From: Candidatus Shapirobacteria bacterium
GTDB taxonomy: Bacteria > Patescibacteriota > Microgenomatia > UBA12405
Assembly (NCBI GenBank): GCA_041659325.1
Contig: JBAZYN010000002.1
Span: 64,513 to 128,512, forward strand
Direction: 5' to 3'
Length of the DNA: 64,000 bases
Part shown: in pieces, positions 38,021-56,456 of the stretch
How positions within the stretch are numbered: the stretch's first letter is position 1
Layout of the letters: the number at the start of each line of letters is the position of its first letter
Position numbers and translations under genes: made by a program
Notes under the pieces: model-generated
Told to the model about the DNA's origin: nothing
Seen by the model: only the letters and a program-made list of their open reading frames with translations
The model's database searches: none

Positions 38021-38689
38021 ATGGAATTAAAAAACAAAACAGCGATTGTAACCGGAGGAAATTCCGGGTTAGGGTTACAGATAGTAAAAGAATTAAAAAA
38101 AAAGAAATGTCGGGTAATTGTAGTAGGAAGGAAGAATTCTGACTTAATTTGTGATTTGCGGGACTATAAACAAATTAAAGCACTAGAAAAAAAGATAGAT
38201 AAGGTCGATATATTGATTAACTGCGCCGGAATAGGCGCTCACCAAAAGCTCGAGGAGCATGATCCGGAAAATGTTGAAGATATCATCAAAACTAACTTAC
38301 TTGGAACCATATATATGACTCAACTAATTTTGCCGAAAATGATTTCACAAAACTCAGGAACGATATTAAATGTGTCGTCGACATCAGGGCTAATGACCGG
38401 TGGATACGGGAGCGAATCGGTTTATATGGCGAGTAAATACGGAGTAAGCGGTTTTAGTGAAGGGTTAAAAAAAGAAATGGAAGCAGAGAAAAATAATATT
38501 AAAGTAATCGGGTTTTATCCGGGGGGAATGAAGACTGAATTTTTTTCAAAAAACGGACAAGAGAAAGATACTTCAAGCTTTATGGATCCAAATGAAATTG
38601 CAAAAATAATTGTTTTTATATTGGAAAGACCTGATTCAATAAATATTGACCATATTGTGATAAATAGAAATAAAAATATTGTTAAATAG
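38021..38689 (+). CDS. short-chain dehydrogenase/reductase (SDR)
   Basis: TAIVTGGNSGLG cofactor motif and YMASK catalytic motif. The start is moved to ATG 38021, because the annotated 37973 start lies inside S-repeat box B. Confidence 0.8.
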   Translation: MELKNKTAIVTGGNSGLGLQIVKELKKKKCRVIVVGRKNSDLICDLRDYKQIKALEKKIDKVDILINCAGIGAHQKLEEHDPENVEDIIKTNLLGTIYMTQLILPKMISQNSGTILNVSSTSGLMTGGYGSESVYMASKYGVSGFSEGLKKEMEAEKNNIKVIGFYPGGMKTEFFSKNGQEKDTSSFMDPNEIAKIIVFILERPDSINIDHIVINRNKNIVK

Positions 38690-38869
38690 TGTTATTAGGA
38701 CAGAAAAATCCCGGACTCACCTGCTTTGGTCAACGTCGTGACGATTAAATTTATCGTTTCTTTGCTGTAAAATGTGAATATGGAAATTAAAAGAATTACC
38801 AAAGTAGATGGCAGTTGGATTTAATTGCCCGGGAATTGGTAGAATTAATCTTCTCGGTCTTGGCCGGGT

Positions 38870-40045
38870 ATGTTAGAAATTATTTCCGCGATGGACTATA
38901 AAGAAGAAGCATTAAAACAACATTTGAAGTTTGGGGGCAAAATTGAAATTAGAAGCAAGTTTCCGGAGATAAAAACCAAGGATGATTTGGCAGTCGCATA
39001 TACCCCGGGGGTGGCGGCAGTGTCTTCTTTTTTGGCGGCAAACCCAAGTGAGGCAGGTAAATATTCGATAAAGGGTAATACTATCGCAGTGATATCGGAT
39101 GGTTCGGCGGTATTGGGATTGGGTAATATCGGGCCTTTGGGGGCTTTGCCGGTAATGGAGGGCAAGGCGCTGTTGTTTAAAGAGTTTGGTGAGGTAGACG
39201 CATATCCGATTGTTTTGGCAACTCAGGATGTAGAAGAAATTATTAAGACAATAAAAGCAATTGCTCCGACTTTTGGAGGCATAAATCTGGAGGATATTTC
39301 TTCGCCGCGGTGTTTTGAGATTGAGGAAAGGCTAATAGCGGAATTGGACATTCCGGTTTTCCATGATGATCAGCACGGAACGGCCATTGTAGTTTTGGCG
39401 GCACTAATTAACAGCTTAAAACTGGTTGGAAAACAACCGGAACATATTAAAGTAATTATTGCCGGGGCGGGAGCAGCAGGAATGGCAACCACAAAACTTT
39501 TGGTTAAATACGGTATTAAAAATATAATTTTGGTCGACTCTAAGGGGGCGATAGCCAAGAACCGAAGTGATTTAAACGAGGAAAAAATGAAAATGCTGGA
39601 AATGACTAATCCGGAAAATGTTGAAGGCAGCCTGGAGGAGGTATTAAAAAATGCGGATGTATTTATCGGGGTAAGTACCGGCGGAATAATGAAGCCGGAG
39701 TTTATTGGAACGATGGCGGATAAACCAATAATTTTTGCGATGGCAAATCCAATTCCGGAAATAATGCCGGATGAGGCAGTTAAAAACGGAGCGTTTATTG
39801 TCGGGACCGGTAGAAGTGACTTTCCCAATCAAATAAATAATGTACTGGTTTTCCCGGGACTGTTTCGGGGAGTGCTGGATAATAGAATTAAACTAATTAG
39901 CGATGAACTGAAAATTGCGACAGCAAAAGTACTGGCAGATTATTTGCGCAAAGACGAATTGGCAGTGGACAGAATACTCCCCAGTGTTTTGGACAAAAAA
40001 GTGAGCATGGCCATCGCCCAAAGAGTGGCTGATTTCAAGGGATAG
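38870..40045 (+). CDS. NAD(P)-dependent malic enzyme (short form)
   Basis: AYTPGVA, GAGAAG dinucleotide motif, about 390 aa as in small malic enzymes. Confidence 0.85.
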
Positions 40046-40092
40046 CGGTTTTTGAGTTTTTGACTTTTGGGATGAGGGGGATAAAATAAGGT

Positions 40093-40230
40093 GATGGAAG
40101 AAAATAAAAAAACCAGAATGATAGTGGTGGCGTTTTTACTGGTGATAGTGGTGGTGTCAAGCTTGGTGATGTTTAGCCTTTATAAGGCACAAGCGGCCAA
40201 GGCAGGACCAACAAAGACTATTACCCGCTA
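40093..40230 (+). CDS. possible small membrane protein (46 aa)
   Basis: ATG after an AAGGTG ribosome-binding site, single TM helix; not in the ORF track (<60 aa). Confidence 0.25.
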
Positions 40231-40267
40231 ACTTTTATAATTTAGTGTTAGTAATTAAACAAATTGA

Positions 40268-40802
40268 TATGAAAAAAGTAACTGTTTTGGGTTTGGTTAT
40301 ATTGTCGGTAGCAGCCCTTTCTGGCTGTACCCCGGGAAAAACGGTTAATGAAAAAATCGGTGAAGAAATGGCGGAAAGAGCATTCGAGGCACAAACAGGG
40401 GCAAAGGTGGATATTGATTCGCAGGGCGAGGATATTACCATAAAAACAGAAGAAGGGCAAACACAGTATTCAGCCGGAGGGCAGGCTAAGTTACCTGATA
40501 ATTTTCCCAAAGAATTGATTGTAAGTAATGATGCCAAAATTATTATGTCCTCTTCGTCGGGACAAAGTAGCACTGTTTCTTATATCACAGATGACGAGCA
40601 GGCGGTAATTGCGGAAAAATATATTGGAGGGCTAACGGGGCAGGGATGGGAAAAAGAAAGCGAGGTTAATATAAGCGGGGCAATTATGCTTGGCTTTAAC
40701 AAAGAGAAGATGAACGTGGCAGTTAATATCGGCGAAAATAGTACGAAGGAACAAGCAGGGAAAAGCTTTGTTAATGTCGTTTTTACGGTAGAGGAAGAAT
40801 AA
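40268..40802 (+). CDS. hypothetical lipoprotein
   Basis: Signal peptide with lipobox LSGC. Confidence 0.45.
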
Positions 40803-40832
40803 TTTTGATCGAAAAGAGAAGATAGGAGGTAA

Positions 40833-41480
40833 TTAGTCGAAGTGAGAGCCGTCGCAAAAGGGCTTATTTTTTGATTTACCGCAACGACAAAGGGTGACCC
40901 GATTGCGGATTTCATAAGTGGAACCATCAGAAGATTCGATGGGGACTCCCCCCTTGATGCAAAGCGGACCACCACTGGAAATTCCGATGGAAGGTTTTAA
41001 TTTTGGTTCGATCGATTTGTTGTTTTGTCGGTCACAGGCAACCAGGCGGCCGGAGGGGCAACAACAAGCTTCTTTGATGGCGGTTTTTTTGGATTCCGGG
41101 TCATCGGAATTTTCGGTTAGATTCCAGGTACCACTAGCCCGATCACAAAAACCCGCACCGGCGCATAGAGAAGCGGTATCTTTTAATATTAAATCCGGGC
41201 CGGTAATTTGATTGGCTTGATTGTCATACTTCTCTTTGGCCTCAGGGTTTTCGGTGCCGTCAAATTTGGTGCTATGATGAGAACCATCACAAAAAGGTTT
41301 ATTTTGGGACTGTCCACAGCGGCAAAGGGCATATGTTTCCCCGGTGGGAATAATTTTTCCTTTTTTGGTTTTTAGAGGAATTCCATCTTGGTCGTATTCA
41401 ACAATATCTTGATTTAATGGTAAATGGTCGGAGACTAAGTAAGGGCCATTTTTGGTGATTTTTATTTTTGCCATAAGCAA
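40833..41480 (-). CDS. CDGSH iron-sulfur domain protein
   Basis: Two CxC...CDGSH motifs (CRCGQSQNKPFCDGSH, CRCGKSKNKPFCDGSH). Confidence 0.7.
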   Translation of the reverse strand: MLMAKIKITKNGPYLVSDHLPLNQDIVEYDQDGIPLKTKKGKIIPTGETYALCRCGQSQNKPFCDGSHHSTKFDGTENPEAKEKYDNQANQITGPDLILKDTASLCAGAGFCDRASGTWNLTENSDDPESKKTAIKEACCCPSGRLVACDRQNNKSIEPKLKPSIGISSGGPLCIKGGVPIESSDGSTYEIRNRVTLCRCGKSKNKPFCDGSHFD

Positions 41481-41512
41481 TTATAGCTCTTGGTTGCAGT
41501 TTTAAAATCTAG

Positions 41513-41529
41513 TGCTACACTATGTAGTA
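41513..41529 (+). promoter_or_regulatory. operator palindrome GCTACACTATGTAGTAT (CopY/BlaI-type box) upstream of the repressor gene
   Basis: TACA...TGTA inverted repeat, identical to a second copy at 42885-42901. Confidence 0.55.
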
Positions 41530-41551
41530 TATGAAACAAAAGGGGGCAGAA

Positions 41552-41905
41552 ATGCTTGGTTCACTGCAAACCAAAGTAATGGATGTTTTGTGGGGAGCAG
41601 AAAAACCGTTAAAACCGGCAGAGGTTTTAGGTAAATTGGGAAATGGCTATGCCTACACTACAGTGATGACAATTTTAAAAAGATTGGCCGATAAGGGAAT
41701 TGTGGTGCGGAAAATGACGGGAAAAGTATATTTCTACTCGCCGTGTTCGTGCAAAGAAAAATTTATTAAAAAAAACCTATCGGGGATTATCGGAGGGCTG
41801 GTGAATTCTTACGGTGAAGCGGCAATTGCAAATTTTGTGGACGTGGTAAAAAACAACAAAGAAGATGTGGTTTTGTTAAAAAAATATCTTGAGTCTCAAG
41901 AATGA
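41552..41905 (+). CDS. BlaI/MecI/CopY-family transcriptional repressor
   Basis: Winged-helix N-terminus (VMDVLW...EV...TTVMTILKRLADKG); ATG at 41552 preceded by an AAGGGGG ribosome-binding site. Confidence 0.7.
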   Translation: MLGSLQTKVMDVLWGAEKPLKPAEVLGKLGNGYAYTTVMTILKRLADKGIVVRKMTGKVYFYSPCSCKEKFIKKNLSGIIGGLVNSYGEAAIANFVDVVKNNKEDVVLLKKYLESQE

Positions 41906-42855
41906 ATTACAAGAGATTAAACCTTATTTCCAATGTTTACTTTTTTTTGATTTTGTTTTCGGGGTTGCTGTATACGGCATTATTGATTACTGCCTCGCAA
42001 AAAATTGTTCCGGCACTAATAATGCAGATAATATTTTTCTTGGATGCCATTAAATTCGACAATAATGTTGTGGGGTTAATCACCTCCCGACTGTTTTTGC
42101 TGAATGTTGTCCCCGGGATTTTTTTAATAGGGCTGATGGTACGATTCGGCAAAACATTAATAAAGTCTTTAAAGAGTATTTCGTCTAATCACTTATTGTT
42201 TAAAGGTTTAGAAATAATTGAGTCAACCGAACAGTTTTTTAAATTCAAATCAGACGATGGTCTTGTTTTTACTTGCGGGTTTTTAAAACCAAAAATTTTT
42301 GTTTCTTCAGGCCTTTTTAAAACTCACAGCCAGGAAGAAATTACTGCCATAGTTCAACACGAAGTAAATCATAAAAATAACCTACACCCCTTTAAAATTT
42401 TTACGGCTAATTTTGTTAAATCTATTTTGCCGATAATTCCTTTAAAAAATTGGTTGATTGATAATTATTTGACTTTGGTTGAGGTGTCTTCCGACTTGTT
42501 TTCTGAAAATAAAATAAATAACAAGTTACCGTTGGTTTCGGCTTTATTGAAATTTCAAAACCGAAATTTTGAGCCAGCTGCGGCAGGAGTCAGCTATTTT
42601 AACAGCCAAAGTGAAAGAATTAAAATATTGGTTGGCCAAAAAAAACAGTTTATAAAGATTCCGATGGCCTATTATTCTCTTGTTTTGGTGGTTATGTTGT
42701 CGGGAGTATTAATGGTAAAAAACTCAAATATCTTTTTTGATTGCCAGCATTTGCTTAAATGTGTGGAGATACTGATGACTTCCAATAACCAGCCTCTTCT
42801 TAGCGTAGTAAGCCCCCAAAACAACACCTTTTCGCCTTCGGATCACTGTCAATAA
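41902..42855 (+). CDS. BlaR1-like M56-family membrane metalloprotease/sensor
   Basis: TM protein with HEVNHK (HExxH) zinc motif; overlaps the repressor gene by 4 nt. Confidence 0.6.
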   Translation: MNYKRLNLISNVYFFLILFSGLLYTALLITASQKIVPALIMQIIFFLDAIKFDNNVVGLITSRLFLLNVVPGIFLIGLMVRFGKTLIKSLKSISSNHLLFKGLEIIESTEQFFKFKSDDGLVFTCGFLKPKIFVSSGLFKTHSQEEITAIVQHEVNHKNNLHPFKIFTANFVKSILPIIPLKNWLIDNYLTLVEVSSDLFSENKINNKLPLVSALLKFQNRNFEPAAAGVSYFNSQSERIKILVGQKKQFIKIPMAYYSLVLVVMLSGVLMVKNSNIFFDCQHLLKCVEILMTSNNQPLLSVVSPQNNTFSPSDHCQ

Positions 42856-42864
42856 ACTTACCCC

Positions 42865-42901
42865 TTGACAGTATTTTTAGTACATACTACACTATGTAGT
42901 A
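42865..42901 (+). promoter_or_regulatory. promoter (-35 TTGACA at 42865-42870) with a second CopY/BlaI-type operator TACTACACTATGTAGTA over the -10 region
   Basis: Read directly; the ATG at 42901 follows immediately. Confidence 0.55.
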
Positions 42902-44433
42902 TGTTAAAATCAAAAACTTCGTTGCAAACCTCCACATACTACGTTCAGGGGATGCATTGCGCCTCCTGTGAGATATTGATTGAAAAGAAAATCATCAAAG
43001 AAGATTCGGTGGAGGCAGTTGACGCTTCCCTTTCTGAGGGAGCGGTGGTTATTAAGCATCGTGCCAATAGCAAAATTACACCGGAATACCTGAATAAAAT
43101 ATTTAAGGAGGATGGATATTGTTTTTCGTCGATACCTTTTAAAAAATCAAAGCGAGCGGCGGCTGACGGCGAATGTGTTGTTCCAAATGAAACCACCACC
43201 AATTCCTATACTCCAATAGTTATTGCGGCAGCTTTTATAATTGGTTATATACTCTTGTCTAAAACTGGTTTTTCTTCTCTGATTTCAGTTAATGGGCAAT
43301 CTTCTTTGCCCGTCTTTTTTTTGTTTGGACTATTGGCCGGAATCTCTAGCTGTGCGGCTTTGGTGGGTGGTATAATTTTGTCTTTAAGTAAGCAATGGCT
43401 CTCGATATATAGCCAAAATGATTCAACTTTAAAAAAGGCTGAGCCTCATTTTCTTTTTAATTTTGGCCGAGTTGTGGGTTATGGTGCTTTTGGGGGGATT
43501 TTGGGGGCAGCCGGTAATTTTTTTCGGTTATCACCAGTGTTTTCGGCCATGCTGGTTATCGCAGTTTCTTTGGTGATGGTTTTGTTGGGACTACAAATGA
43601 TCGGGGTTAAGGCCTTGCAGCGTTTTCAAATCCGCCTGCCAAAATCTTTAACAGGAAAGTTGTCGGATGAGTCGAACTTTCGTGGCCGCTTCGGGCCTTT
43701 TTTAATGGGGGCATTAACTTTCTTTTTACCGTGTGGATTTACAATTACTACCCAAGCTTTGGCATTGGCTTCCGGTAACCCACTTCAGGGAGCACTTATT
43801 ATGGGGATATTTGCTTTGGGTACAGTACCTGGTCTATTGGCAATAGGTCTAAGCAGTGTTAAGTTCTGTAGTAATCCTAAATCAGCCAGGCAGTTTTCTT
43901 TGATTGCCGGAATGCTGGTTCTCTTTTTTGCGGCTTTTAATATCAACACTCAGCTTTCGGTTTTGGGGGTATCTAATGTAGATGATCTTATTTCTAGCCC
44001 CTCAACTACCCAGGTGGGTAAATCTTTGGGTGAATTACCTCCTTTGGTTAACGGCACCCAGGTCGTCAAAATTGATGCTTCATCAAGCGGTTATACCCCC
44101 AACCGCATCCGCCTTCGAGCTAATACCCCCACCCGATGGGAGGTTTCAACAAACAATATCAGCGGCTGTACTAACGCTATTATTTCCCGCGGATTGTTTG
44201 ATGGGCAAATTGATTTGGTTGACGGCCAGGTTTCAACCAAAGAATTTACTTCTCCTAAGCCCGGGGTTTATAAATTCAGCTGCTGGATGGGGATGGTGAC
44301 CGGCACGGTGGAGGTGGTGGATGCATCCGGATCAACCGGAACCGATGTTAATACTCAACCGGTGGGCTCCGGGGCCAAGGGTTGCGGGTGTGGTGGTGGA
44401 TCTGCTGGTAACAGCACTTGTGGAGGAAGATAA
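42901..44433 (+). CDS. multidomain copper-handling membrane protein: HMA domain, CcdA/DsbD-like TM core, C-terminal cupredoxin-like domain and Cys/Gly tail
   Basis: MHCASCE metal-binding motif; about 8 TM helices with a CcdA-like pattern; the C-terminal approximately 100-aa domain (...C..G...F.P..PG.YKFSCWMG) is homologous to ORF 48110; tail GCGCGGGSAGNSTCGG. Confidence 0.55.
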   Translation: MLKSKTSLQTSTYYVQGMHCASCEILIEKKIIKEDSVEAVDASLSEGAVVIKHRANSKITPEYLNKIFKEDGYCFSSIPFKKSKRAAADGECVVPNETTTNSYTPIVIAAAFIIGYILLSKTGFSSLISVNGQSSLPVFFLFGLLAGISSCAALVGGIILSLSKQWLSIYSQNDSTLKKAEPHFLFNFGRVVGYGAFGGILGAAGNFFRLSPVFSAMLVIAVSLVMVLLGLQMIGVKALQRFQIRLPKSLTGKLSDESNFRGRFGPFLMGALTFFLPCGFTITTQALALASGNPLQGALIMGIFALGTVPGLLAIGLSSVKFCSNPKSARQFSLIAGMLVLFFAAFNINTQLSVLGVSNVDDLISSPSTTQVGKSLGELPPLVNGTQVVKIDASSSGYTPNRIRLRANTPTRWEVSTNNISGCTNAIISRGLFDGQIDLVDGQVSTKEFTSPKPGVYKFSCWMGMVTGTVEVVDASGSTGTDVNTQPVGSGAKGCGCGGGSAGNSTCGGR

Positions 44434-44461
44434 TTATTATTAAATTAATTACAAAAAACAT

Positions 44462-44680
44462 ATGATAAATGAAAACATTACCCTTAGCGTTCCCGATATG
44501 CATTGCGATTCCTGCCCCAAGTTGATAAAAATAACCCTGATGGAAATGGAAGGGGTTGAGGAAGTTTCTGCTTCACTTGATAGTAAAACTGTAGTGGTAA
44601 GTTTCGATCCACGAAAAACGTCTACTGAAGCACTTATTAGTTCCATTAAGGAAATAGGCTATACGGCCAGTCTTAAATAA
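44462..44680 (+). CDS. copZ: copper chaperone CopZ (HMA domain)
   Basis: 72 aa, MHCDSC metal-binding motif. Confidence 0.8.
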
Positions 44681-44681
44681 A

Positions 44682-47600
44682 ATGATGCCGAAAATAAAAT
44701 CAAAGCAGGTGATTTTATCGGTTCCCGGTATGCATTGCCCAACGTGCCCTAAATTGATTGCTTTGGGACTGAAAGATCAAAAGGGGGTTAATTCGGTAAC
44801 CGCTTCACTGGAAAAAAAACAAGTAATTGTCGATTTCGACCCTGCAAAAATTGAAATAACTGATTTGGTGGCTAATATAAAGGAATCGGGATATACGGCA
44901 ATTCCCCAGGGGAGCGAACCAGTTCCTGTTAAAAGTAGCGGACCATCAGAATTGCCCACGGAAGCTATGAACGGACCCCAAAAGGTGGATACACCGGCTA
45001 CCGTCTCTAATACTCAAGTGGCTCTGTTAAGTTTGAGTGGTATGCACTGTTCCAGCTGTGCCGGATTAATAGAAAGGTCGCTTAAAAAAGTCCCGGGGGT
45101 AAGTGAGACCAATGTTAATTTTGCCTCAGAAAAAGCCCGAATTGTTTATAACCCTTCCATTACTAAAGTCGAGGATTTAATCAAAGGGGTGGAATCGGCT
45201 GGTTATCATGCGTCACTTCCCGGGGAAAAAGAAACGAATCAAAAAGAAAAACGAGCTCATGAAATCCGGTATTGGCTTAAAAAATTAGTAATGGGTTTTA
45301 TTCTAAGTATTCCTATGATTTTATTTATGGCCTATGATTTTACTAATGCAATTCCTCTAAAGTCGGTAATCATGCCTTATGCCGGGATAATTTCGCTGGT
45401 ATTGACAACCCCCGTTCTTTTTTATGTTGGGGCTAATTTTTTTGCCGGGTTTTGGTCGGCGCTAAAGATGCGGACCTTCTCCATGGATTCCCTGATTGCG
45501 ATAGGTACCGGTACTGCTTTTGTTTATAGTATCTATGAATTCGTTAAATACCTGGTTGAAACCGGATCGGCTGTCGGACTTAATGGTACCAAGATTCCAA
45601 ACCTTTACTTTGAAGTGGCCGCATTCTTGGTCACGTTTGTGGCTCTGGGTAAATTCCTGGAAGCCAAAGCCAAAGGAAAAACCTCGGAAGCGATTGAAAA
45701 ACTAATGGGATTGGCGCCAAAAACAGCCCGGGTAATGCGCAACGGCCAACCAATCGACATTCCTGTCGAACAGGTAGTTGTGGGCGACACAATTGTGGTT
45801 CGTCCGGGGGAAAGGATTCCGGTTGACGGTGAGGTTATAAGCGGCTATTCTGCCGTGGATGAATCCATACTGACCGGGGAGTCCCTGCCGGTTGAAAAAC
45901 AAATTGGGTCTAAGGTTTACACAGCTTCGATTAATAAAACCGGTTCTTTCGAATTTAAAACTACCAAGGTCGGGGCCGATACAGCCTTAAGCCAGATAGT
46001 AAAACTAATCGAGGATGCTCAGGGCTCCAAGGCCCCAATCCAGGGTTTTGCTGATAAAATTTCCTCTATTTTTGTACCCACGGTGATCATCATTGCTTTT
46101 TTGACTTTTGTCACCTGGTACTTTTTACTCGGAGCTTCGCTGACTTTTTCACTTCTGGCTTTTGTGGCCGTCATCGTTATTGCCTGCCCTTGTGCCCTTG
46201 GATTGGCCACTCCAACATCTATTATGGTGGGGACAGGTAAAGGGGCCGAATACGGAGTTCTTATCAAGGGGGGTGAGCCTTTGGAAATGGCTGAAAAAAT
46301 AAAAGCGATTGTTTTTGACAAAACCGGGACTTTGACAAAAGGAAAACCCGAGGTGACCGACTTTATTAACTACCTGCCTACCGGTCAAGCAGGCCTCCCG
46401 GGTGATCAGTCGGTACTCTCAATTTTGTACTCGATTGAACAAAAATCAGAGCATCCTTTGGCAGAAGCTATTGTCCGTTATGGACAAAACAACGGAGCAA
46501 TAAATTTTGCCGTTGATGATTTTTTGGCAATTCCCGGGCATGGAGTCAGGGCGATAGTTAACGGTCAAGTTTATTTTGTGGGAAACCGGAAACTACTTGA
46601 AGTCAACAGGATTCCGCTGACCTCCGGCTATGATATGGAGCGACTGGAGAACGACGGTAAAACGGCAATGGTAATTGCCAACAAAGAAAGAGTGCTTGGA
46701 TTAATTGCGGTGGCTGATCAGGTTAAGGAGTCTTCTGCCTCAGTGGTCTCTAAATTGGCCAATATGGGCATAGAAGTTTATATGATTACGGGGGATAACC
46801 GCCGGACTGCTGAGGCTATCGCCCGACAGGTGGGAATTACTAAAGTTTTGGCAGAGGTTTTGCCTCAGAATAAGGCAGAAGAGGTCAAAAAACTTCAAGA
46901 CAAGGGCCTTAAGGTGGCCATGGTGGGAGATGGGATAAATGACGCTCCGGCTCTTATTCAGGCAGATTTGGGGATGGCAATGGCAAGTGGGGCTGATATC
47001 GCCATGGAGTCGGGTGGTATTGTGATTATGTCTAATGACTTAAACGGAGTTTTAACGGCTATAAGCTTATCCCGTGAAACCGTCGGGAAAATTCGCCAAA
47101 ATATGTTTTTCGCCCTCTTTTATAATGTTTTGGGTATACCGATTGCGGCGCGGGCATTGGCTTTTATGGGACTAATTCTTAAACCTGAACTAGCCGGATT
47201 GGCCATGGCTTTGTCCTCGGTGTCGGTAGTTACCAATTCTTTGACTCTGAAATTTTTCAAGCCCGGTAAATTCAATTGGATTTCCCGTTTGGCGCCCTTT
47301 GTTATGGTGATAGTTTTTGTGGGTGTTTTTATTGAATTTGCCAGATTTTCTTCCCAAATGGGAGGGACGCAAGTAGAGGCCAGATCCGGATTGGCGGCAT
47401 ATGTTCAGGAACAACCGGAAGTTAGAACAATAATAAACCGCGTGCTTATCGAAAATTCTTCAAAGATTGCGTTTGACGGAAATTTCCCAAAACTGTTTTT
47501 GGGGGTAGATGTGTTAGCCGAATCGATTAGACTCTCTGAAGGTTCATCGGATATTTCGGGAGAAGGGAGCGTGGTTTTGGGGGCTAAAGAGGCGGCAATG

Positions 47601-48104
47601 ATGAAGGAAGAAGGTCTTATTAAAGGCATCGGCTCTGAAATACCCGATTTCTTTGGACTACCAAAAATAAAAGTCGTTGGCATATTAGCACCGACCGGAA
47701 CCATTTTGGATGAATACCATATTTTTAACAAAGCCAACTTTGATGGTTTGACAAAAGCCAATAATGATCTATTGGTTGCCGAAACCCCCTTGGAAGACCT
47801 AAAACTTTTCTATTTTTATGATGGAAATAATATTCCCCAATCCTTGAATACACTAATTAACCCGGCCAAGACTACCTATATTATTGATGGGGTTGAGTAC
47901 CTTTCGACCTACGTTGGCTATGATGAGGCCAGAATGATGATGGCAGAGAAACTAATTCAAAAAAAGTTTGACATTATTAAGGGGTTCTTTGGCAACAATA
48001 TTATCATTGCCGGACTGCCAAAAAAGACACTGACCAGTCTGGACATGATGCACTTTGTACCAAAAATCTTTAAAAATAATTATCAAACTCTAATTAACAA
48101 ATAA
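44682..48104 (+). CDS. copA: copper-translocating P-type ATPase with two N-terminal HMA domains and an about 275-aa C-terminal extension
   Basis: MHCPTC and MHCSSC motifs, CPC in TM6, DKTGT, GDGIND; the core ends at about aa 860 ([13 protein letters not shown]), followed by an extra domain of unknown function. Confidence 0.9.
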
Positions 48105-48109
48105 AAAAT

Positions 48110-48478
48110 ATGAAAATTACTTATATATTCTTTTTGTTAGCGGCGATTGCTATCGGCGGATTTGTTTTGTCTCACTCTTTTGAGAAAGCAGAGTCGGTTG
48201 GTCCTGTCCAAGTAGTAAAAGCCACCTACGGCCCACCGTTTGGGTTTGTCCCTATCCAGATGACGGTTAAGGCGGGTCAGCCCGTCAGGTTGGAGGTAGA
48301 AGCGACCGAGGACGGTCGGGGCTGTATGGGCAGCATTACTATACCAAGACTAAACAACCAAATTCAGTCATTTAAAAAAGGCCAGGTTAATGTTTTTGAA
48401 TTCACTCCTCAAACCCCCGGAACATATCCCGTCACTTGTGCTATGGGTATCCCCCATGGGGACATAATAGTCAGATAA
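48110..48478 (+). CDS. secreted cupredoxin-like small protein
   Basis: Signal-anchor N-terminus; shares a C..G......F.P..PG.Y...C.MG pattern with the C-terminus of ORF 42901. Confidence 0.45.
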   Translation: MKITYIFFLLAAIAIGGFVLSHSFEKAESVGPVQVVKATYGPPFGFVPIQMTVKAGQPVRLEVEATEDGRGCMGSITIPRLNNQIQSFKKGQVNVFEFTPQTPGTYPVTCAMGIPHGDIIVR

Positions 48479-48488
48479 GATTGGCTGA

Positions 48489-48572
48489 AGAATTGCAGGG
48501 ATGGCGATGTCTTTGAGTAGTGTTTCGGTGGTAAGTAATTCGCTGAGACTGAAGTGGAAAAATTTGGATTAA
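48489..48572 (+). pseudogene. orphan fragment encoding a P-type ATPase C-terminus (RIAGMAMSLSSVSVVSNSLRLKWKNLD*)
   Basis: 27 codons strongly similar to CopA TM8 ([21 protein letters not shown]), preceded by an in-frame TGA. Confidence 0.55.
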
Positions 48573-48629
48573 AACCTATAGGGACTTTGAGGTAAAATGA
48601 GATTAATTAGCTTGTTTATTATGATTTCA

Positions 48630-49322
48630 CTAATCAAATCTGGCGTTTTGTTTTAACTCCCGAACTTGGCTGACAATGTCGGGAATGAGGGCTCTGGCTA
48701 TCGACTCAAGATGATCCCCCCTACCTATATTGTGGAAATTTTCATTTTTTATCCAAGACGGATGGGAGGCTTGTTGAGGGACAACAGTATCATCCGGAGA
48801 ATTGTAAGCACTAATTTTTTCAGGTAAGTGAAGGGCTTCTATGACCTCTTGAGTGAGATTTTTAGTTAAAAATCTGGCAACTTGTTCAAAACCGGGGCTT
48901 GTAGTGGTTAGATGGGATAAGTCCAGGCTATTTAAATCAGGGTTTAATAAACCAGAAACTGAATAACCGTGGCGGATTTTGTGGTGGTATTCCGGCGTGA
49001 GCAAGTAAGCCATCATCAAGGCCGCGCCGGCGCTTACTGCAACGACTAGGGGTTGTTTTCCTCCGTCGATGGCTTCTTGAACGACGATATCCAGACGTCT
49101 GGCTTTTTCATCCAAATCTTCATCAGTCCTCCACCGAGGATCAAAAACTTTGACATCAAAAACCTTGTCCATGGTATTGACAATAGTATTGACAATGCCC
49201 TCGGGAAGGTCTTCTAATCCATCTTATCCACGTATAAGAATTACTTCTACCTGGTTTCTGTCGGCTTCCCGATTTTCCTGACCAAATAATCTTGACGGAT
49301 CAAAGCCAATAAATTCAGGCAT
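48630..49322 (-). pseudogene. alpha/beta hydrolase (YdeN/RBBP9-like) interrupted by an in-frame TAA
   Basis: The ATG at 49322 opens MPEFIGF...VEVILIRG, then TAA (top-strand 49224-49226) falls at the HG[YW]GG-motif position, then the frame continues into VAVSAGAAL (GxSxG-like). Confidence 0.5.
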
Positions 49323-49370
49323 ATGAGATTGTAACAGGAAAAGTGGGATTAGATGAAAAAATAGAGATGT

Positions 49371-50006
49371 TTATTTATTGATTTTTCGTGCAATAATAGC
49401 CTCGACAAAATGTACCGTTTCCTCCAGTTTTCCGTCGTAGTTTATAACCATTTGATCTATATATTCACCCCTGACAGACATCCAGGTTTCCCAGTCTACC
49501 CTAAGCCTGTCTATAAGCTGACGGCGACCGCCTTGGTCTCTGGCGGCTCTACGGCGCATTAGAGTCCATAGGTCAGGAGTCCCGATAAAAACTTTGGTCA
49601 TACGGGGAATGATTACTTTAGCCAGATCGGGAGCATGCTTCTCGAGCATAGCTCCATAATTAGCGGCGGCGACAGGATCAACTCTTAAAATCATATTGCC
49701 ACCGTTCGCAACCTGTTCAATTTGACTGCGCCTAAGACCTTTTCGGTCACCATAGTATTGGGCATATTCGACAAAGTCCCCTTCTTCTATCCCCTGGAGA
49801 AATTGGTCACGAGTCTCAAAAAAATAATCAATACCATCAACCTCGGTTAGATTGCCAGAAGAATCCCGACGAGGTGGTCTGGTGGTACTGGTGACTAAAA
49901 ATTTATATTCAGGATTTCTACGACGAAATCCGTCAACAACAGCATCTTTGCCTACCCCGGAGGGCCCGGTGATTATTAGCAAGTGGCCTTCGGGTGTACG
50001 ATTCAT
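49371..50006 (-). CDS. gmk: guanylate kinase
   Basis: P-loop GPSGVGK and TTRPPR...DG.DYFF motif; GC clearly higher than its neighbours. Confidence 0.85.
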   Translation of the reverse strand: MNRTPEGHLLIITGPSGVGKDAVVDGFRRRNPEYKFLVTSTTRPPRRDSSGNLTEVDGIDYFFETRDQFLQGIEEGDFVEYAQYYGDRKGLRRSQIEQVANGGNMILRVDPVAAANYGAMLEKHAPDLAKVIIPRMTKVFIGTPDLWTLMRRRAARDQGGRRQLIDRLRVDWETWMSVRGEYIDQMVINYDGKLEETVHFVEAIIARKINK

Positions 50007-50053
50007 TGGTCGATTATATTACAAAAAAAAGATTGTGGGGGTAAAATGAGGTA

Positions 50054-50695
50054 ATGAAGAAAATTATGGGAATAGGTTTAATCTTGGTCATTGGAATAAT
50101 GGCCGGGGGATGTTTGCAAAAAGAGACAGGTACGGCAGAGGGGGCAAAAAACGTACCCAAACCTCAGGAGAGAAGCGGAAATTGCACGGAAGAAGCGGTG
50201 GAAATTGAAGGATATGGAGACAAGGGCAAGAGGCTTAATAATTGTTTTGTAGAATACCCCGGCGAGCCATCTCGAGAAGATAAAAGTTATTATATAGTGG
50301 AGGATATTTGCGGACAGTTTACCAGGGAATTTGTGGAGAATAAGTTGGGAAAAACGATAACCAGAATCGAGCCGTCAGATATTGGCGGACTTTATAATTG
50401 TCGGTATTTTCTAAACGAAAGCGATGAGTATGTGGTGATATCCCTGGAATATTTAACAATTGAAAACCAAAAGAAGGGCCATGAATCAATGGGGAGAAAG
50501 ACAGAGACGAGCGAAAAAATTCCGATGAGAAACTTGTTGGTATGGCAGGAGGATGGAGCGCTCAACAGTCTTTATTTGGTACTGGGTGATGAGAAGTTTA
50601 TCTCTATCGGCAGATCTCCCGACTCGGGGTTGACGGCAGATGAGCTGATTGGTTTAGCAGCAGAGATAGCATTAGAGATAAAAAATTATAAATAA
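50054..50695 (+). CDS. hypothetical lipoprotein
   Basis: Signal peptide with lipobox AGGC. Confidence 0.4.
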   Translation: MKKIMGIGLILVIGIMAGGCLQKETGTAEGAKNVPKPQERSGNCTEEAVEIEGYGDKGKRLNNCFVEYPGEPSREDKSYYIVEDICGQFTREFVENKLGKTITRIEPSDIGGLYNCRYFLNESDEYVVISLEYLTIENQKKGHESMGRKTETSEKIPMRNLLVWQEDGALNSLYLVLGDEKFISIGRSPDSGLTADELIGLAAEIALEIKNYK

Positions 50696-50897
50696 AGAGA
50701 CGGATAGCTTTTAGACAAAAGCTAGTCGAGTTTCAAGGATTGTTTGGGTTGATGCCAAAAGCTGGCTGATTTTCCATATATATTTCAGGCACGGATTTGA
50801 TACATTGCAATTGGACGGAATAATTATATGCTTGCTTTTACATAGATTTTTTTGAGAGAAATTAGATTAACAATTTAAAAAATAAAACAAGAAAAAA

Positions 50898-52175
50898 ATG
50901 AAATTTTTGTTCATTTCGAAGGAGGCATTAATCTCGGATATTGCCTGGCAAATTATCAAGGAAGGGCACGAAGCGAAGTATTTTATTGAAGAAAAGAGCG
51001 AGCAGGAAATCGGGGACGGGTTTGTACCAAAGACCAACAACTGGGAAAAAGAGGTTAAGTGGGCGGATGTAATTGTCTTTGATGACGTTTTGGGACAGGG
51101 GAAGATTGCTCATGAACTGAGAGAGCGGGGTAAAAAAGTAATCGGGGGAACGCATTATACAGACAGACTGGAGGATGACCGCTCGTTTGGACAGGAAGAA
51201 TTAAAAAGGCACAAGGTAAACATTCTTCCCTACCAGGATTTTTTTAGCTTTGATGAGGCGATTGATTATGTACAGAAAAATCCTGACGAGTATGTGATTA
51301 AGCCATGCGGAGAGGCAGCAAACATTAAGCGGTTACTGTTTGTGGGGATGGAGAAGGATGGCGGCGATGTAGTGAGAGTACTGCAATCATATAAAAAAGT
51401 ATGGTCAGAAGAAATAAAACAATTTCAGCTACAAAAGAGGGTGACAGGGGTAGAGGTGGCGGTTGGGGCTTTTTTTAACGGCCACAAGTTTATTAAACCA
51501 ATAAATATAAATTTTGAACACAAGAAATTGTTTCCGGGGAATATCGGACCGGCAACAGGAGAGATGGGAACCAGTATGTTTTGGAGTGATGGGAACAAAC
51601 TTTTTGATAACACCTTGCTAAAAATGGAACCAACATTGGCAAAAGAAGGTTATGTAGGATATATCGATTTAAACTGTATAGTAAACGGAAACGGGATCTA
51701 CCCGCTGGAATTTACATCAAGATTCGGATATCCGACTATCAGCATTCAATATGATTCGATGATTACGCCAATCGGCCAATTTTTCTATGATTTGGCAAAC
51801 GGCAAAGACATTGATTTGAAGGTGAGAAAAGGATTTCAGGTGGGGGTAAGAGTAGTGGTCCCCCCTTATCCATTTAGAGACAAAAAAACCTTTAATTCTT
51901 ATTCCAAAAAAGCAACTATTGTCTTTAAAAAAATGGATCACTATGAGGGGATTCACATCGAGGACGTAAAAATAGTTAAAGGGGAATGGGTGGTGACGGG
52001 AGGCTCGGGAGTGGCGCTGATCGTGGTGGGGACGGGGTTGACGATGAGAGATGCCCAGAGGCAGGCATATGGAAGAATCGATAACATCCTAATACCAAAT
52101 ATGTATTATCGAAAAGATATCGGAGACCGATGGTACGAAGAAGGCGATAAGCTTTTGATGTGGGGAGTGATATAA
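50898..52175 (+). CDS. phosphoribosylamine-glycine ligase-like ATP-grasp protein
   Basis: GPATGEMG (compare PurD GPNTGGMG), ATP-grasp layout, N-terminal ALISDIAWQI resembles PurD ALAWKL. Confidence 0.5.
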   Translation: MKFLFISKEALISDIAWQIIKEGHEAKYFIEEKSEQEIGDGFVPKTNNWEKEVKWADVIVFDDVLGQGKIAHELRERGKKVIGGTHYTDRLEDDRSFGQEELKRHKVNILPYQDFFSFDEAIDYVQKNPDEYVIKPCGEAANIKRLLFVGMEKDGGDVVRVLQSYKKVWSEEIKQFQLQKRVTGVEVAVGAFFNGHKFIKPININFEHKKLFPGNIGPATGEMGTSMFWSDGNKLFDNTLLKMEPTLAKEGYVGYIDLNCIVNGNGIYPLEFTSRFGYPTISIQYDSMITPIGQFFYDLANGKDIDLKVRKGFQVGVRVVVPPYPFRDKKTFNSYSKKATIVFKKMDHYEGIHIEDVKIVKGEWVVTGGSGVALIVVGTGLTMRDAQRQAYGRIDNILIPNMYYRKDIGDRWYEEGDKLLMWGVI

Positions 52176-52194
52176 AAAACCGACTGTTAAACCA

Positions 52195-52225
52195 AAAAGC
52201 CCCGTCTTGGACGGGGCTTTTTTAG
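52195..52225. terminator. bidirectional rho-independent terminator
   Basis: AAAAAGCCCCGTC-TTGG-ACGGGGCTTTTTT between convergent genes. Confidence 0.75.
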
Positions 52226-52266
52226 TTCAATTCTAATCCTTATGTTAGAGCCGGGGTCGAAACTGG

Positions 52267-54312
52267 CTATCTGACGACCACAGTTTTTCTGATTACAGCA
52301 GCGGCGTAGTCAAAGATAGTGGTAGCAGGGACCCGATAGTTTTTGATGGAGGCCTGATCACCGACTTCAACCATGACGACATAGGTGCTACCAATTTCGG
52401 CGGTGGTCGGGATTGTCCAGGTACGACTGTTTATAGAGCCTGCTTTGCCCAAATCACCGGCGTTTTCTGCAGTGACGTTGCTTTTGTAGACTTCGATTTC
52501 TACCGGCTTGTAGCGATCGTAACAACTCATAGCATAGACTCCGTCACCATCGGTGGCGCCCCAGACTTTGTAGGTAACACCCTTTAGCAGTCTTGGCCTG
52601 ACATCAAAGTCAAAGTCAATCTTTCTGGTGTTGTTGGTAACCAGCATTGACCTTTGGCCCCCCTTGGAACAAGCGACCGGGTTGGTCGGGAGGTTGTACA
52701 TGTGATGAGCCTCATTGGGCCTGGAATCAAGATCGTAGTTATTGTCGGAGACTAAGCCGGCGCTATCGGTAATGATGACGTGGGCGCTCCAGGCAGCTGA
52801 GCTAGCATTTTTGAAAGGAATGCTTAAGCTCGAAACGACCATGTCTTGGGTAGGAACAATAGTACCGATCTGGGTCCAGTATTGATTGGACATCTTTTTG
52901 ACCGGATATAGTTTACTGCCATCATGATTGGCACAGCCGTAACCGATGGCTACAGCCAAAGAGTCGATGGCATCCTGCCTGTAGTAATTAAAACGGTAGG
53001 TTAATGGCGCATGAGTAGAAACACCATTAGCCTTGAGGGTAATGGTTTCACCGGGGGCCGGATTCTCGTTGCTAACGGTAAAATCGGTAACCCTAACGAG
53101 ACGGTCACAGGAGCTACAGCAGCCTGCCCCTATCGGTAAGTAACTACACTTGACATCGCCACCGTTTGACATGTCCGGCTCTCTATATGACATAGTGCAT
53201 TTACAGTCTTCACAAACCGGATACTTTGGCGGCGGGGGCGTGGGAGTCTTTGTCGGAGTTATGGTGGTCCTGGGAATGGTGGGAGTAACGGTGGTGGGAG
53301 AACACACACAGGCCGGATAATCAGGACAGCTTCGATTTCGACATCGCATGGTACCAGTAACGGTATCGGTGTAACAATGACCAGTGGAACATTGGGCATC
53401 GTAACTACAAGATGCGTTACAACTTAATTTGGTAGTCGGAGGTGTGGGAGTCTTTGTCGGGGTGATGGTTGTAGGACAGCTACAAGCGGTGTAATCCGGA
53501 CAACTTCGATTACGACATCGCTTGGTGCCGGTGATGGTGTCGGTATAACAGTAGCCAGTGGAGCATTGGGCATCGGAACTACAAGACTGATTACAGCCAA
53601 CCTGACACTGACAGTCTGCGTAATCCGGACAATTTCGATTTCGACAAACCATAGCACCAACGATTGGATCGATAGCACAATAGCCGGTGGAACATTGGGC
53701 GTCGGCACTACAAGATGCGCTGCAACTTAATTTGGTGGTGGGAGGAGTAGGAGTGGAGGTAACGGTGGTGGTACCACTACAAGTGGCGCTGTCCCACTTA
53801 CAACCTTTTTTGGCACAACTCCAGCCATTACCACTGGCATCAACCTGATAAACTCCACATTTGACACTTGAAGTAAGACTGTATTTTCCGGGACCATAAC
53901 TTTTGGTGGTAGTGGCACAGCCGACACCCTGCTGGGCGTCTGCCTGACACTGCTCTTTGGTTTTGCCCGGATAATATTCCTGCTTACAGTTGGCGATAGC
54001 AAGATTGACGGTACCACCAGTAACAGTAAAGCTGTCACAATTACCGGTGATGGTAACTCCACTTGTAGAAGTATTACATTGACACTTACCGCTTATCCAG
54101 GCGCAACCGCTACCGGCATGGGACCAACAGTTGGACTCAGAGGTGGCACCATCACAAGTCGTCGAAACACAACCCGCGGCGAGATTACGGGTGTCTTGAT
54201 TTGATTGAGACAGTTTTGTGGCGATGGGGATGGCCAGAGCCATGATAACCAGACCAATTATTAGCGGGATTTGTGTTAAACCAAATTGATTGAATAGATT
54301 TTTTATCTTCAT
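52267..54312 (-). CDS. large Cys- and Thr-rich surface/secreted protein with three approximately 45-aa cysteine-knot-like repeats and TPTPPTTK linkers
   Basis: N-terminal signal-anchor; repeats CSxDAQCSTGYCxxDxxxGxxRCRNRSCPDYxxCxC three times; C-terminal beta-rich approximately 330-aa domain. Confidence 0.55.
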   Translation of the reverse strand: MKIKNLFNQFGLTQIPLIIGLVIMALAIPIATKLSQSNQDTRNLAAGCVSTTCDGATSESNCWSHAGSGCAWISGKCQCNTSTSGVTITGNCDSFTVTGGTVNLAIANCKQEYYPGKTKEQCQADAQQGVGCATTTKSYGPGKYSLTSSVKCGVYQVDASGNGWSCAKKGCKWDSATCSGTTTVTSTPTPPTTKLSCSASCSADAQCSTGYCAIDPIVGAMVCRNRNCPDYADCQCQVGCNQSCSSDAQCSTGYCYTDTITGTKRCRNRSCPDYTACSCPTTITPTKTPTPPTTKLSCNASCSYDAQCSTGHCYTDTVTGTMRCRNRSCPDYPACVCSPTTVTPTIPRTTITPTKTPTPPPPKYPVCEDCKCTMSYREPDMSNGGDVKCSYLPIGAGCCSSCDRLVRVTDFTVSNENPAPGETITLKANGVSTHAPLTYRFNYYRQDAIDSLAVAIGYGCANHDGSKLYPVKKMSNQYWTQIGTIVPTQDMVVSSLSIPFKNASSAAWSAHVIITDSAGLVSDNNYDLDSRPNEAHHMYNLPTNPVACSKGGQRSMLVTNNTRKIDFDFDVRPRLLKGVTYKVWGATDGDGVYAMSCYDRYKPVEIEVYKSNVTAENAGDLGKAGSINSRTWTIPTTAEIGSTYVVMVEVGDQASIKNYRVPATTIFDYAAAVIRKTVVVR

Positions 54313-54472
54313 AGTTTAATACTATGACGATTTGATATTTAGTGTCAAGGACTTGGATTGGCGAATAATGCTGAGATATCAAAAAAATTGAAAGCGACCG
54401 TTTTTTGATTTTGTTAGTGGACAATTTAGTGATTATATATGATGCCTTATGAGATATAATTATTATTAATAT

Positions 54473-54664
54473 ATGAGATCGATAGTAAACATATCAATGC
54501 CAAAACAGTTGGTTGAGGCGGTCGAGGAAGGAGTAGCCCAGGGGGGATATGCTAGCAAAAGTGAATTTTTCAGGATGCTTGTAAAGCAGTGGCTAAAAAG
54601 AAGGTCAAGACAGGGGAGCAGTAAATACTCGGCCGGGATAAAGGTAAGAAGTTTAAGGGGGTAG
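54473..54664 (+). CDS. ribbon-helix-helix (CopG-family) small DNA-binding protein
   Basis: 63 aa, beta-strand then two helices, typical of ribbon-helix-helix antitoxin/regulator proteins. Confidence 0.4.
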   Translation: MRSIVNISMPKQLVEAVEEGVAQGGYASKSEFFRMLVKQWLKRRSRQGSSKYSAGIKVRSLRG

Positions 54665-55348
54665 GTGAAAATCTATTGGAGAAAATAGTGATTTTATGGG
54701 TTTATAGCTTTTGCGGTGGATGGGGCAGATGCCTAATTTCTGCAAAGAAGAAAAATGAGCGGCGGTGCCATAACCTTTGTTTTGACCAAAACCATAACCG
54801 GGGTAACTTTGATCGTATTGGTCCATTTTTTGGTCGCGGACAACTTTGGCACAGATTGAGGCGGCGGCGACAGAAAAGCAGGAAGAGTCGGCTTTGACAA
54901 TTGATTTAATCCCTCTCCGCTCGTTAAACTCGGGGTTTCTCCCTTTGACAAGGGAGAGGTTGTTGAATTGATAATTTCCGTCGACCAGACAGAAATCGAA
55001 TTGGCCGCGAAAATGGTCAAGGATGTACAAAATTAAACCTTTGATGGTAGGAGCGATTCCCCTTTCGTCGATTTTTGAAGATGAAGCGGAAACAACCTGA
55101 AAGGTGAAATTGTTTTGTTGAAAATATGAAAATATTTTTTGTCTATTTTTATTGGTAACTTTTTTGGAATCACGGACACCGAGCTTGATAAATTCATCTG
55201 GGTTGAACTTTTCAAGATCCAGGAGAAAGGCGCCAATAGTGACAGGACCAGCCCAAGGACCACGGCCAACTTCGTCAATACCTAAAAGATAGCGGACCCC
55301 GGAAGGGAGGAGTGAGCGCTCGTAACTAAAATCCGGATTAACGACCAT
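54653..55348 (-). CDS. rnhB: ribonuclease HII
   Basis: GIDEVGRGPWAGPV active-site motif. Confidence 0.85.
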   Translation of the reverse strand: MVVNPDFSYERSLLPSGVRYLLGIDEVGRGPWAGPVTIGAFLLDLEKFNPDEFIKLGVRDSKKVTNKNRQKIFSYFQQNNFTFQVVSASSSKIDERGIAPTIKGLILYILDHFRGQFDFCLVDGNYQFNNLSLVKGRNPEFNERRGIKSIVKADSSCFSVAAASICAKVVRDQKMDQYDQSYPGYGFGQNKGYGTAAHFSSLQKLGICPIHRKSYKPIKSLFSPIDFHLPP

Positions 55349-55357
55349 TAGGATAGT

Positions 55358-56410: not shown

Positions 56411-56456
56411 GCCAGGTAAGAGTGTAACATATAGGTCTACCTGTTAGAATAAGACT

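Follow-up and report, generated by a model that had tools for sequence, protein, structure and literature searches.

A CopA copper ATPase with a fused, predicted extracytoplasmic domain and a neighboring copA relic in a copper operon of Candidatus Shapirobacteria

The window analyzed here is a 64,000-nucleotide stretch of the genome of a Candidatus Shapirobacteria bacterium (GenBank assembly GCA_041659325.1, contig JBAZYN010000002.1, positions 64,513 to 128,512 of the forward strand), with all coordinates numbered from its first letter. It carries a tightly packed operon of copper genes, among them a gene for a CopA-type copper ATPase of 1140 residues, a cupredoxin gene that follows it and, just beyond, a short orphan fragment that resembles the end of a copA gene (Table 1). 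An initial annotation, made from the letters alone, had noted both the long C-terminal extension of this CopA and the fragment, and had offered two explanations: an insertion of about 1.2 kb (extension plus cupredoxin gene) that displaced an ancestral 3' end, or the deletion of a second copA of which only the tail is left. The overall explanation that we consider the best, and moderately probable, is that the pump is fused to a domain located outside the membrane and that the fragment is a relic of a different copA gene. The CopA core is ordinary by itself, as is a pseudogene relic; new here is the fused extracytoplasmic domain, which belongs to a small unannotated family without a solved relative by sequence.

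The fused copA gene and its C-terminal extension

Pfam recognizes two HMA domains, an E1-E2_ATPase domain (residues 344–522, E = 4.2e-60) and a HAD Hydrolase domain (residues 540–762, E = 4.8e-41) in the 1140-residue protein and matches nothing later. Together with the catalytic motifs TGES398, DKTGT546 and GDGIND749 (TGES, DKTGT and GDGxND in general form), these domains place the core among the P-type ATPases. The motifs for copper selectivity sit in the membrane helices (CPC in M4, YN in M5 and MxxSS in M6), and their presence as CPC502, YN814 and MALSS842 assigns the core to the P1B-1 class. The NCBIfam model TIGR01511 (ATPase-IB1_Cu) reaches 610 bits, above its cutoff of 397, with a match that stops at residue 857 (model position 542 of 542), and the match to the Escherichia coli-type CopA equivalog PRK10671 stops at residue 862 (model position 837 of 838). 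The reading frame as a whole is one intact gene for a P1B-1 ATPase, CopA, predicted to be a Cu(I) exporter, whose last core helix (M6, the eighth membrane helix) is present in full. The stretch that the initial annotation had named as the end of the core corresponds to residues 845–859, with the coordinates now corrected to 47214–47258, and the accompanying remark that a CopA normally stops soon afterwards holds for the relatives, in that extension-less CopAs at related loci terminate five to eight codons past an NSL.LK motif. Instead of ending in the cytoplasm shortly past the eighth helix, the present protein continues to residue 1140 (the profiles stop at residues 857–862), which is a novelty of architecture and no argument against the core being CopA.

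The sequence beyond the CopA profiles comprises residues 860–1140, about 280 residues rather than the 275 first estimated. No Pfam or NCBIfam family matched it, even at permissive thresholds over 21 members. An AlphaFold2 model of residues 861–1140 based on the family alignment (pLDDT 90.2) displays a long helix, a poorly defined linker and a compact α/β domain; the domain alone, modeled with a deeper alignment of 77 sequences, reaches a pLDDT of 97.3 and a pTM of 0.91. The long helix (helix 9) has a Kyte–Doolittle peak of 2.22 at residues 866–884 and a net flanking charge of +3 before and 0 after it, and no hydrophobic segment was found in the sequence after the domain. The eight membrane helices of CopA leave its C-terminus in the cytoplasm (PMC7558416), so that one additional helix would put the domain outside the cell. 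The extension domain should thus lie on the outer side of the membrane, a location also expected for the anchored stand-alone forms described below.

The domain of approximately 220 residues is built of two tandem modules of about 100 residues each, and an hhalign comparison of residues 922–1025 with residues 1026–1132 gave a probability of 99.3 and an E value of 5e-20. The consensus over 95 diverse sequences contains, in each repeat, a G-x-x-E-A-x-M-M-x-x-E helix and a T-x-x-x-x-D-x-x-H motif. Conserved positions are E970, A971, M973, M974, E977, D1010 and H1013 in repeat 1 and E1082, A1083, M1086, D1097, D1121 and H1124 in repeat 2; E970, M973, M974, E977, D1010, H1013, E1082, M1086, D1121 and H1124 are kept in 80–100% of the 95 sequences. 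The glutamate and methionine residues, which share one helix face, are plausible candidate copper ligands together with the aspartate and histidine residues.

Table 1. Positions of the fused copA gene, the orphan fragment and the other operon genes in the window
Feature	Position	Strand	Basis or remark
Fused copA reading frame	44682..48104	+	1140 residues; TAA stop at 48102-48104
CopA core, residues 1-859	44682..47258	+	Two N-terminal HMA domains, eight-helix P1B-1 membrane domain, cytoplasmic ATPase domains
Ninth transmembrane helix, residues 866-894	47277..47363	+	AlphaFold2 helix at extension residues 6-34
Linker, residues 895-921, partly of low confidence	47364..47444	+	pLDDT <50 at extension residues 34-45, then short helices at 45-64
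Repeat 1 of predicted extracytoplasmic domain, residues 922-1025	47445..47756	+	hhalign between repeats, family conservation, AlphaFold2
Repeat 2 of predicted extracytoplasmic domain, residues 1026-1140, and TAA stop	47757..48104	+	hhalign between repeats, family conservation, AlphaFold2; motif LDMMHFV
Pseudogene relic, last 27 codons and natural TAA of a canonical, extension-less copA	48489..48572	+	84 nt; tblastn to CopA tail
BlaI/CopY-family repressor, first gene of the operon	41531..41905	+	PF03965 Penicillinase_R (identical L100 gene); syntenic with L008-L011
BlaR1/M56-like membrane protein, HEVNH motif	41902..42855	+	4-nt overlap with repressor gene; syntenic in Shapirobacteria loci
HMA-DsbD_2-cupredoxin membrane protein	42865..44433	+	Pfam HMA 3.7e-9, DsbD_2 (CcdA-like) 3.1e-31, Cupredoxin_1 7.1e-7
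CopZ-like HMA copper chaperone, 72 residues	44462..44680	+	Pfam HMA, E = 8.1e-18
CupA-like cupredoxin, 122 residues, N-terminal hydrophobic anchor helix	48110..48478	+	Pfam Cupredoxin_1, E = 7.9e-10

In a Foldseek search of the Protein Data Bank (PDB) with the modeled domain, the top 28–36 matches were all periplasmic domains of MacB, LolC, LolE, YbbP, BceB-type or haem-exporter proteins. The scores are weak, with E values from 6.6e-3 (best) to 2e-2 and TM-scores of 0.25–0.39, at probabilities of up to 1.0 over approximately 110–190 aligned columns. The Pfam family MacB_PCD (PF12704) matched none of the 21 members, even with the threshold relaxed to E ≤ 5, and did not match the window protein at E ≤ 0.01. 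A search of the PDB sequences with the family profile matched only the last-helix part of CopA, which is present in some members, and in the CopA chains this alignment ran right to the C-termini. As modeled, the extension domain resembles parts of the MacB-type periplasmic domains and is not called a member of that family.

The extension was searched for in 5.8 billion protein clusters and then in genomes and metagenome contigs, which gave about 90 loci. Only 20 clusters were found, several of which start with the last helix of CopA. An HMMER profile run exhaustively over 1.84 billion representatives returned only 199 members at E ≤ 1e-3, a number consistent with a small separate family. Among 94 near-full-length members, 80 are stand-alone proteins and 14 are fused. 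At 78 loci the CopA core through to the extension is covered by a single tblastn alignment, and these genes contain no in-frame stop (41 loci), only TGA stops (33 loci, 2 to 73 per gene) or a single stop (four loci). The TGA-only pattern is what would be expected of the UGA-recoded Gracilibacteria, Absconditabacteria and relatives. The signature of UGA recoding (genetic code 25) is seen, for example, at loci L003, L004, L013, L021, L024, L026, L027 and L067. Gene callers had split such copA genes, so that several early matches resembled stand-alone proteins of 165 residues. Named genomes with the fused form belong to Candidatus Shapirobacteria, Peribacteria, Gracilibacteria and Absconditabacteria/SR1, all of the Candidate Phyla Radiation (CPR), and the closest whole-protein relatives of the fused CopA are from Shapirobacteria (83% identity). 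Four contigs labeled 'uncultured Pseudomonadales' (L028, L029, L031 and L032) contain a CPR-type fused copA at a GC fraction of 0.40–0.42, and their label looks doubtful.

Six loci are unfused: two from Woesearchaeota (L036 and L037), one from Altiarchaeota (L038) and three on metagenome contigs (L092–L094). Here the domain is a separate protein of approximately 270 residues with an N-terminal hydrophobic anchor, encoded immediately beside a canonical copA that ends ...NSLLLKRSKL* or similar. At L092–L094 the gene order is copA, domain gene and two cupredoxin genes, which matches the order of core, extension and cupredoxin gene in the window. On the evidence of the gene orders, the fused gene most likely arose by the merging of copA with its downstream neighbor through loss of the stop codon; the membrane anchor of the neighbor would have turned into helix 9 on fusion. 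The initial annotation had advised aligning orthologues to see whether the extension is lineage-specific; in this comparison, the same fusion recurs at 78 CPR loci. To judge from this distribution, the extension is a stable trait of a whole CopA clade, not a local accident or insertion. We hold the anatomy of the protein and its evolutionary reading together with high confidence. No account of a P1B-ATPase with a domain on the outer side came up in the literature searches made.

The orphan fragment beyond the cupredoxin gene

The fragment begins only 10 nt from the stop codon of the cupredoxin gene and translates as RIAGMAMSLSSVSVVSNSLRLKWKNLD*, with an in-frame TGA directly on its 5' side. 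When copA was masked in the window and the CopA tail served as tblastn query, the fragment was matched with an E value of 9.6e-6 and 16 identities in 22 positions; the next match had an E value of 1.0, so that the similarity is not due to chance. The natural stop lies six codons past LRLK, as in canonical CopAs, and the fragment matches canonical tails such as that of L093 best, if only slightly; a canonical CopA end had been proposed initially from its translation. It shows partial homology to a gene of which the rest, including a usable start, is missing, as is characteristic of a pseudogene relic, and by direct reading no Shine–Dalgarno-like sequence was seen at a normal distance from its internal ATGs. 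A possible upstream continuation of the relic in another frame (DWLK/LAEEL) amounts to a few codons and is too short to evaluate. The fragment and its junction are identical in L100 (Logan SRR18595301), an independent assembly of the same organism that is 99.978% identical to positions 38630–57070 of the window (four mismatches over 18.4 kb); the fragment is therefore not an assembly artefact. A reading as an RNA element or terminator was dropped, since neither Rfam nor the promoter/terminator scans gave a hit around the fragment.

Nucleotide-level divergence from copA had also been noted initially, and an alignment of the fragment with the tail of the resident copA puts figures to it: the identity is 62%, the longest exact in-register run is 5 nt, and the two agree at 16 of 22 first, 17 of 22 second and eight of 22 third codon positions. 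Conserved first and second positions combined with a saturated third position point to a long-diverged copA that was under selection at the protein level for most of that time. The comparison thus shows neither a recent duplication of the resident tail nor an att-like repeat: an attL/attR-type duplication would be a near-identical direct repeat, which these values contradict.

Synteny between the window and its closest relatives extends over positions 41518–48478 and ends at the stop codon of the cupredoxin gene, exactly where the fragment lies. Bounded by the BlaI-like and cupredoxin genes, the copper cluster (41518–48478 in the window, 4323–11370 in L008) has the same flanking genes in both and the opposite orientation with respect to them; window 38888–40048 corresponds to L008 16384–17544 inverted, and window 50138–50695 to L008 3651–4208 inverted. 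From this arrangement, the cluster behaves as a putatively invertible or movable block. The regions past the cupredoxin gene differ in every relative. In L008 and L009, the nearest relatives, a second P-type ATPase follows right after the cupredoxin gene, at the position where the initial annotation had advised looking for one. It was rejected as the source of the fragment, being CopB-like with a tail ending ...ALLMSVSSIIVATNAVLLKRAEKSLITI. L008 also contains another orphan tail of canonical CopA type, of 47 codons, at the same end of the cluster. It abuts a 3' relic of DsbA on the opposite strand. In this arrangement (L008 13482–13754), two divergently transcribed genes seem to have lost their 5' parts in one deletion. 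In the window as in L008, the orphan tail sits at the cupredoxin end of the cluster and is oriented with it. The fragment itself is carried by none of the other relatives examined, only by the same strain, and the two tails could not be established as orthologues, a 60-nt nucleotide comparison being unable to discriminate (53–67% identity for all pairs). Homologues of the downstream gene for a 180-residue protein were found beside no copA in the relatives; one contig represents the same organism (L100) and the others have unrelated neighbors.

The comparison of loci favors the fragment as a putative relic of an additional canonical copA, mostly deleted, at the variable end of the cluster. This gene would have lain downstream in the same orientation, ending ...SNSLRLKWKNLD, and would have been lost by deletion or rearrangement at that end. 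The second of the two explanations offered initially is thereby borne out in part, by the natural stop, the synteny breakpoint, the second ATPase of L008 and L009 and the second tail in L008. Its weak side is the source gene, which was not found intact in any relative; the CopB-type tail of the second ATPase in L008 and L009 does not resemble the fragment, and the 60-nt comparison cannot assign the fragment to a copA lineage.

The tail could instead have belonged to a resident canonical copA that was overwritten by an incoming cassette of copper genes, with one end of the recombination anchored in homology and the other illegitimate, in which case its source would not be a third ATPase of the cluster itself. 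A cluster that occurs between the same flanks in the window and in L008 in inverted form looks like a movable block, and the flanks past the cupredoxin gene differ in every relative, both of which suit a cassette; the orphan tails, however, travel with the end and orientation of the cluster and not with the flank, and the homologues of the gene for the 180-residue protein adjoin no copA. We regard such a replacement as rather unlikely. Far less credible still is the reading that an ancestral copA received a single insertion of about 1.2 kb, with extension and cupredoxin gene as the inserted unit and the fragment as the displaced 3' end. It draws on the position of the fragment just downstream of both features and in the same orientation, but the resident copA has a full M6, which the fragment duplicates rather than continues, so that nothing was displaced. 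The fusion is old and common to 78 loci across several phyla, whereas the cupredoxin gene occurs only in a Shapirobacteria subgroup and at some unfused loci; with such different distributions, cupredoxin and extension are not one inserted unit. The saturated third codon positions and the longest shared run of 5 nt also speak against it, as does the lack of any other lineage with a fragment at this position. The lost additional copA therefore stays our preferred source for the fragment, which is a relic irrespective of its source gene, is unrelated to the origin of the extension and matters only as a marker of gene loss or rearrangement at the edge of the copper cluster.

Other genes of the copper operon

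The operon starts with a CopY/BlaI-type repressor, as does the pneumococcal cop operon. The assignment of the next gene to the BlaR1/M56 family is an inference from its motif and its adjacency to the BlaI-like gene. The third product has approximately seven membrane helices, a cytoplasmic HMA domain, two conserved cysteines in its CcdA/DsbD_2-like domain and a C-terminal cupredoxin-like domain with a C-W-M-G-M motif, followed by a Gly/Cys-rich tail (GCGCGGG...CGG). Its gene lies upstream of the fused copA at nearly all loci where that side is visible, and the protein could serve to transport reducing power or copper through the membrane. Directly upstream of the operon, on the reverse strand (40833–41480), a protein of 215 residues contains two CDGSH-type iron–sulfur zinc-finger domains (Pfam, identical L100 gene). 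No island signature is apparent in the base composition of the region around the cluster.

The gene that follows copA encodes a cupredoxin-like protein, as had been noted at the outset. The sole sequence relative of its product in the PDB is Streptococcus pneumoniae CupA (4F2E/2MRY; phmmer E = 1.8e-4); both cysteines, one methionine and the His-Gly pair align (C-x-M...H-G positions). CupA is likewise a membrane-anchored cupredoxin-like protein encoded with copA in a CopY/BlaI-regulated operon. It differs in the second methionine of its low-affinity site, which is an isoleucine in the 122-residue protein of the window, and pneumococcal CopA has a cupredoxin-like N-terminal domain where the present CopA has ferredoxin-like HMA domains.

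Possible role of the extension and comparison with known systems

We tentatively propose that the domain would work at the exit side of the pump, where it would receive or guide Cu(I) leaving the membrane site, for onward transfer or release. For this it would use the conserved Glu/Met/Met/Glu face of the helix and the Asp-x-x-His motif of both repeats, and the remaining copper proteins encoded in the operon would act alongside the domain. Taken on its own, this mechanism of copper receipt and hand-off is possible rather than probable. Several points count against it: the conserved methionines could be structural, within the hydrophobic core; the resemblance to MacB-type domains is weak and lacks support at the sequence level; and MacB-type domains are not known to bind metal. 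A further point is that CupA is thought to face the cytoplasm in S. pneumoniae (PMC7558416); the 122-residue cupredoxin may do the same and is for this reason not counted as an outside partner.

The main competing explanation is that the outside domain is not a copper binder and serves as a mechanical coupling device, as in MacB, LolCDE and FtsX: the helix motions of the ATPase cycle, transmitted via helix 9, would push, release or activate an outside partner or substrate. The only structural neighbors of the domain, filling all of the top 28–36 Foldseek positions, are of the mechanotransmission type (type VII ABC periplasmic domains). The domain is attached immediately behind M6, one of the helices that shift in the P-type ATPase cycle, and where it stands alone it always adjoins copA at the loci examined. 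Against this, the similarity is weak (TM-score < 0.4, E ≥ 6.6e-3) and without a Pfam MacB_PCD match, and a MacB-type domain is held by two membrane helices whereas this one is suspended from one. Stand-alone homologues have no covalent link to the pump, so that force transfer would require a tight complex, and this reading does not account for the conserved Met, His, Asp and Glu residues. On balance, we consider a purely mechanical function unlikely. A copper-independent structural role, in oligomerization of the pump, envelope anchoring or contact with the surface of a host cell, appears similarly improbable. CPR and DPANN organisms are often episymbionts, which is what makes host contact an option; the family is confined to CPR-type bacteria and, among the named unfused loci, DPANN archaea, and neither Pfam nor Foldseek recognized a metal-binding fold. 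Such a role nevertheless makes it hard to explain why the domain is strictly tied to copA, by fusion or adjacency, inside copper operons, and why conserved polar and sulfur-containing residues appear in both repeats.

The release of Cu(I) by P1B pumps and its hand-off to acceptors on the far side of the membrane are poorly understood, and the transient contact between CopA and CusF in E. coli is the only worked example of an exit-side hand-off. A pump with its own outside domain, together with the archaeal stand-alone version, offers a stable and structurally tractable system for the exit step. The analysis also defines a small unannotated protein family with a high-confidence predicted structure, of which the fused and split gene forms are a clean example indicating functional partnership.

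With canonical CopAs such as those of Legionella pneumophila (PDB 3RFU) and Archaeoglobus fulgidus (PDB 3J09), residues 1–859 share the full architecture including the eight helices. Known CopAs end a few residues past the last helix or bear only cytoplasmic metal-binding domains, whereas the present protein continues with a ninth helix and a predicted outside domain of approximately 245 residues. The likeness to the type VII ABC periplasmic domains (MacB, LolC, LolE, YbbP and BceB) lies in mixed α/β modules placed just after a membrane helix and in a pattern of the 'G..(E/L)A..L....GD.I......V.G(I/V)' type, the latter read by eye and without a tool. The MacB-type domain sits between TM1 and TM2 of a four-helix FtsX-type permease, while no FtsX membrane domain follows here, and the partner pump is an ABC protein in those systems and a P-type ATPase in the present one.

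Two other classes of P-type pumps have single-pass partners with a sizeable domain on the outer side, namely the β subunit of Na,K-ATPase and Cdc50 of the P4 flippases. The layout of the stand-alone archaeal domain beside copA is exactly that of these partners, although there is no sequence or fold relationship between them and the extension domain, and no accessory subunit of this sort is known for the P1B class. The domain might be an obligatory partner of the P1B copper pumps of CPR and DPANN organisms in the manner of the Na,K-ATPase β subunit, coupling the cycle to Cu(I) capture and directed release by a MacB-like mechanotransmission; we give this idea a low probability, and if true, it would give the P1B class its first known functional domain of extracytoplasmic location. 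The closest functional parallel to the tentative hand-off role comes from E. coli, where CopA reportedly passes Cu(I) to CusF in the periplasm and does not release it freely (PMC7558416). CusF is a soluble five-stranded β-barrel with a Met2-His site, whereas the candidate acceptor here has an unrelated fold, is membrane-anchored or fused to the pump and would bind copper; what the two would share is the concept of a dedicated acceptor for Cu(I) on the outer side of the membrane.

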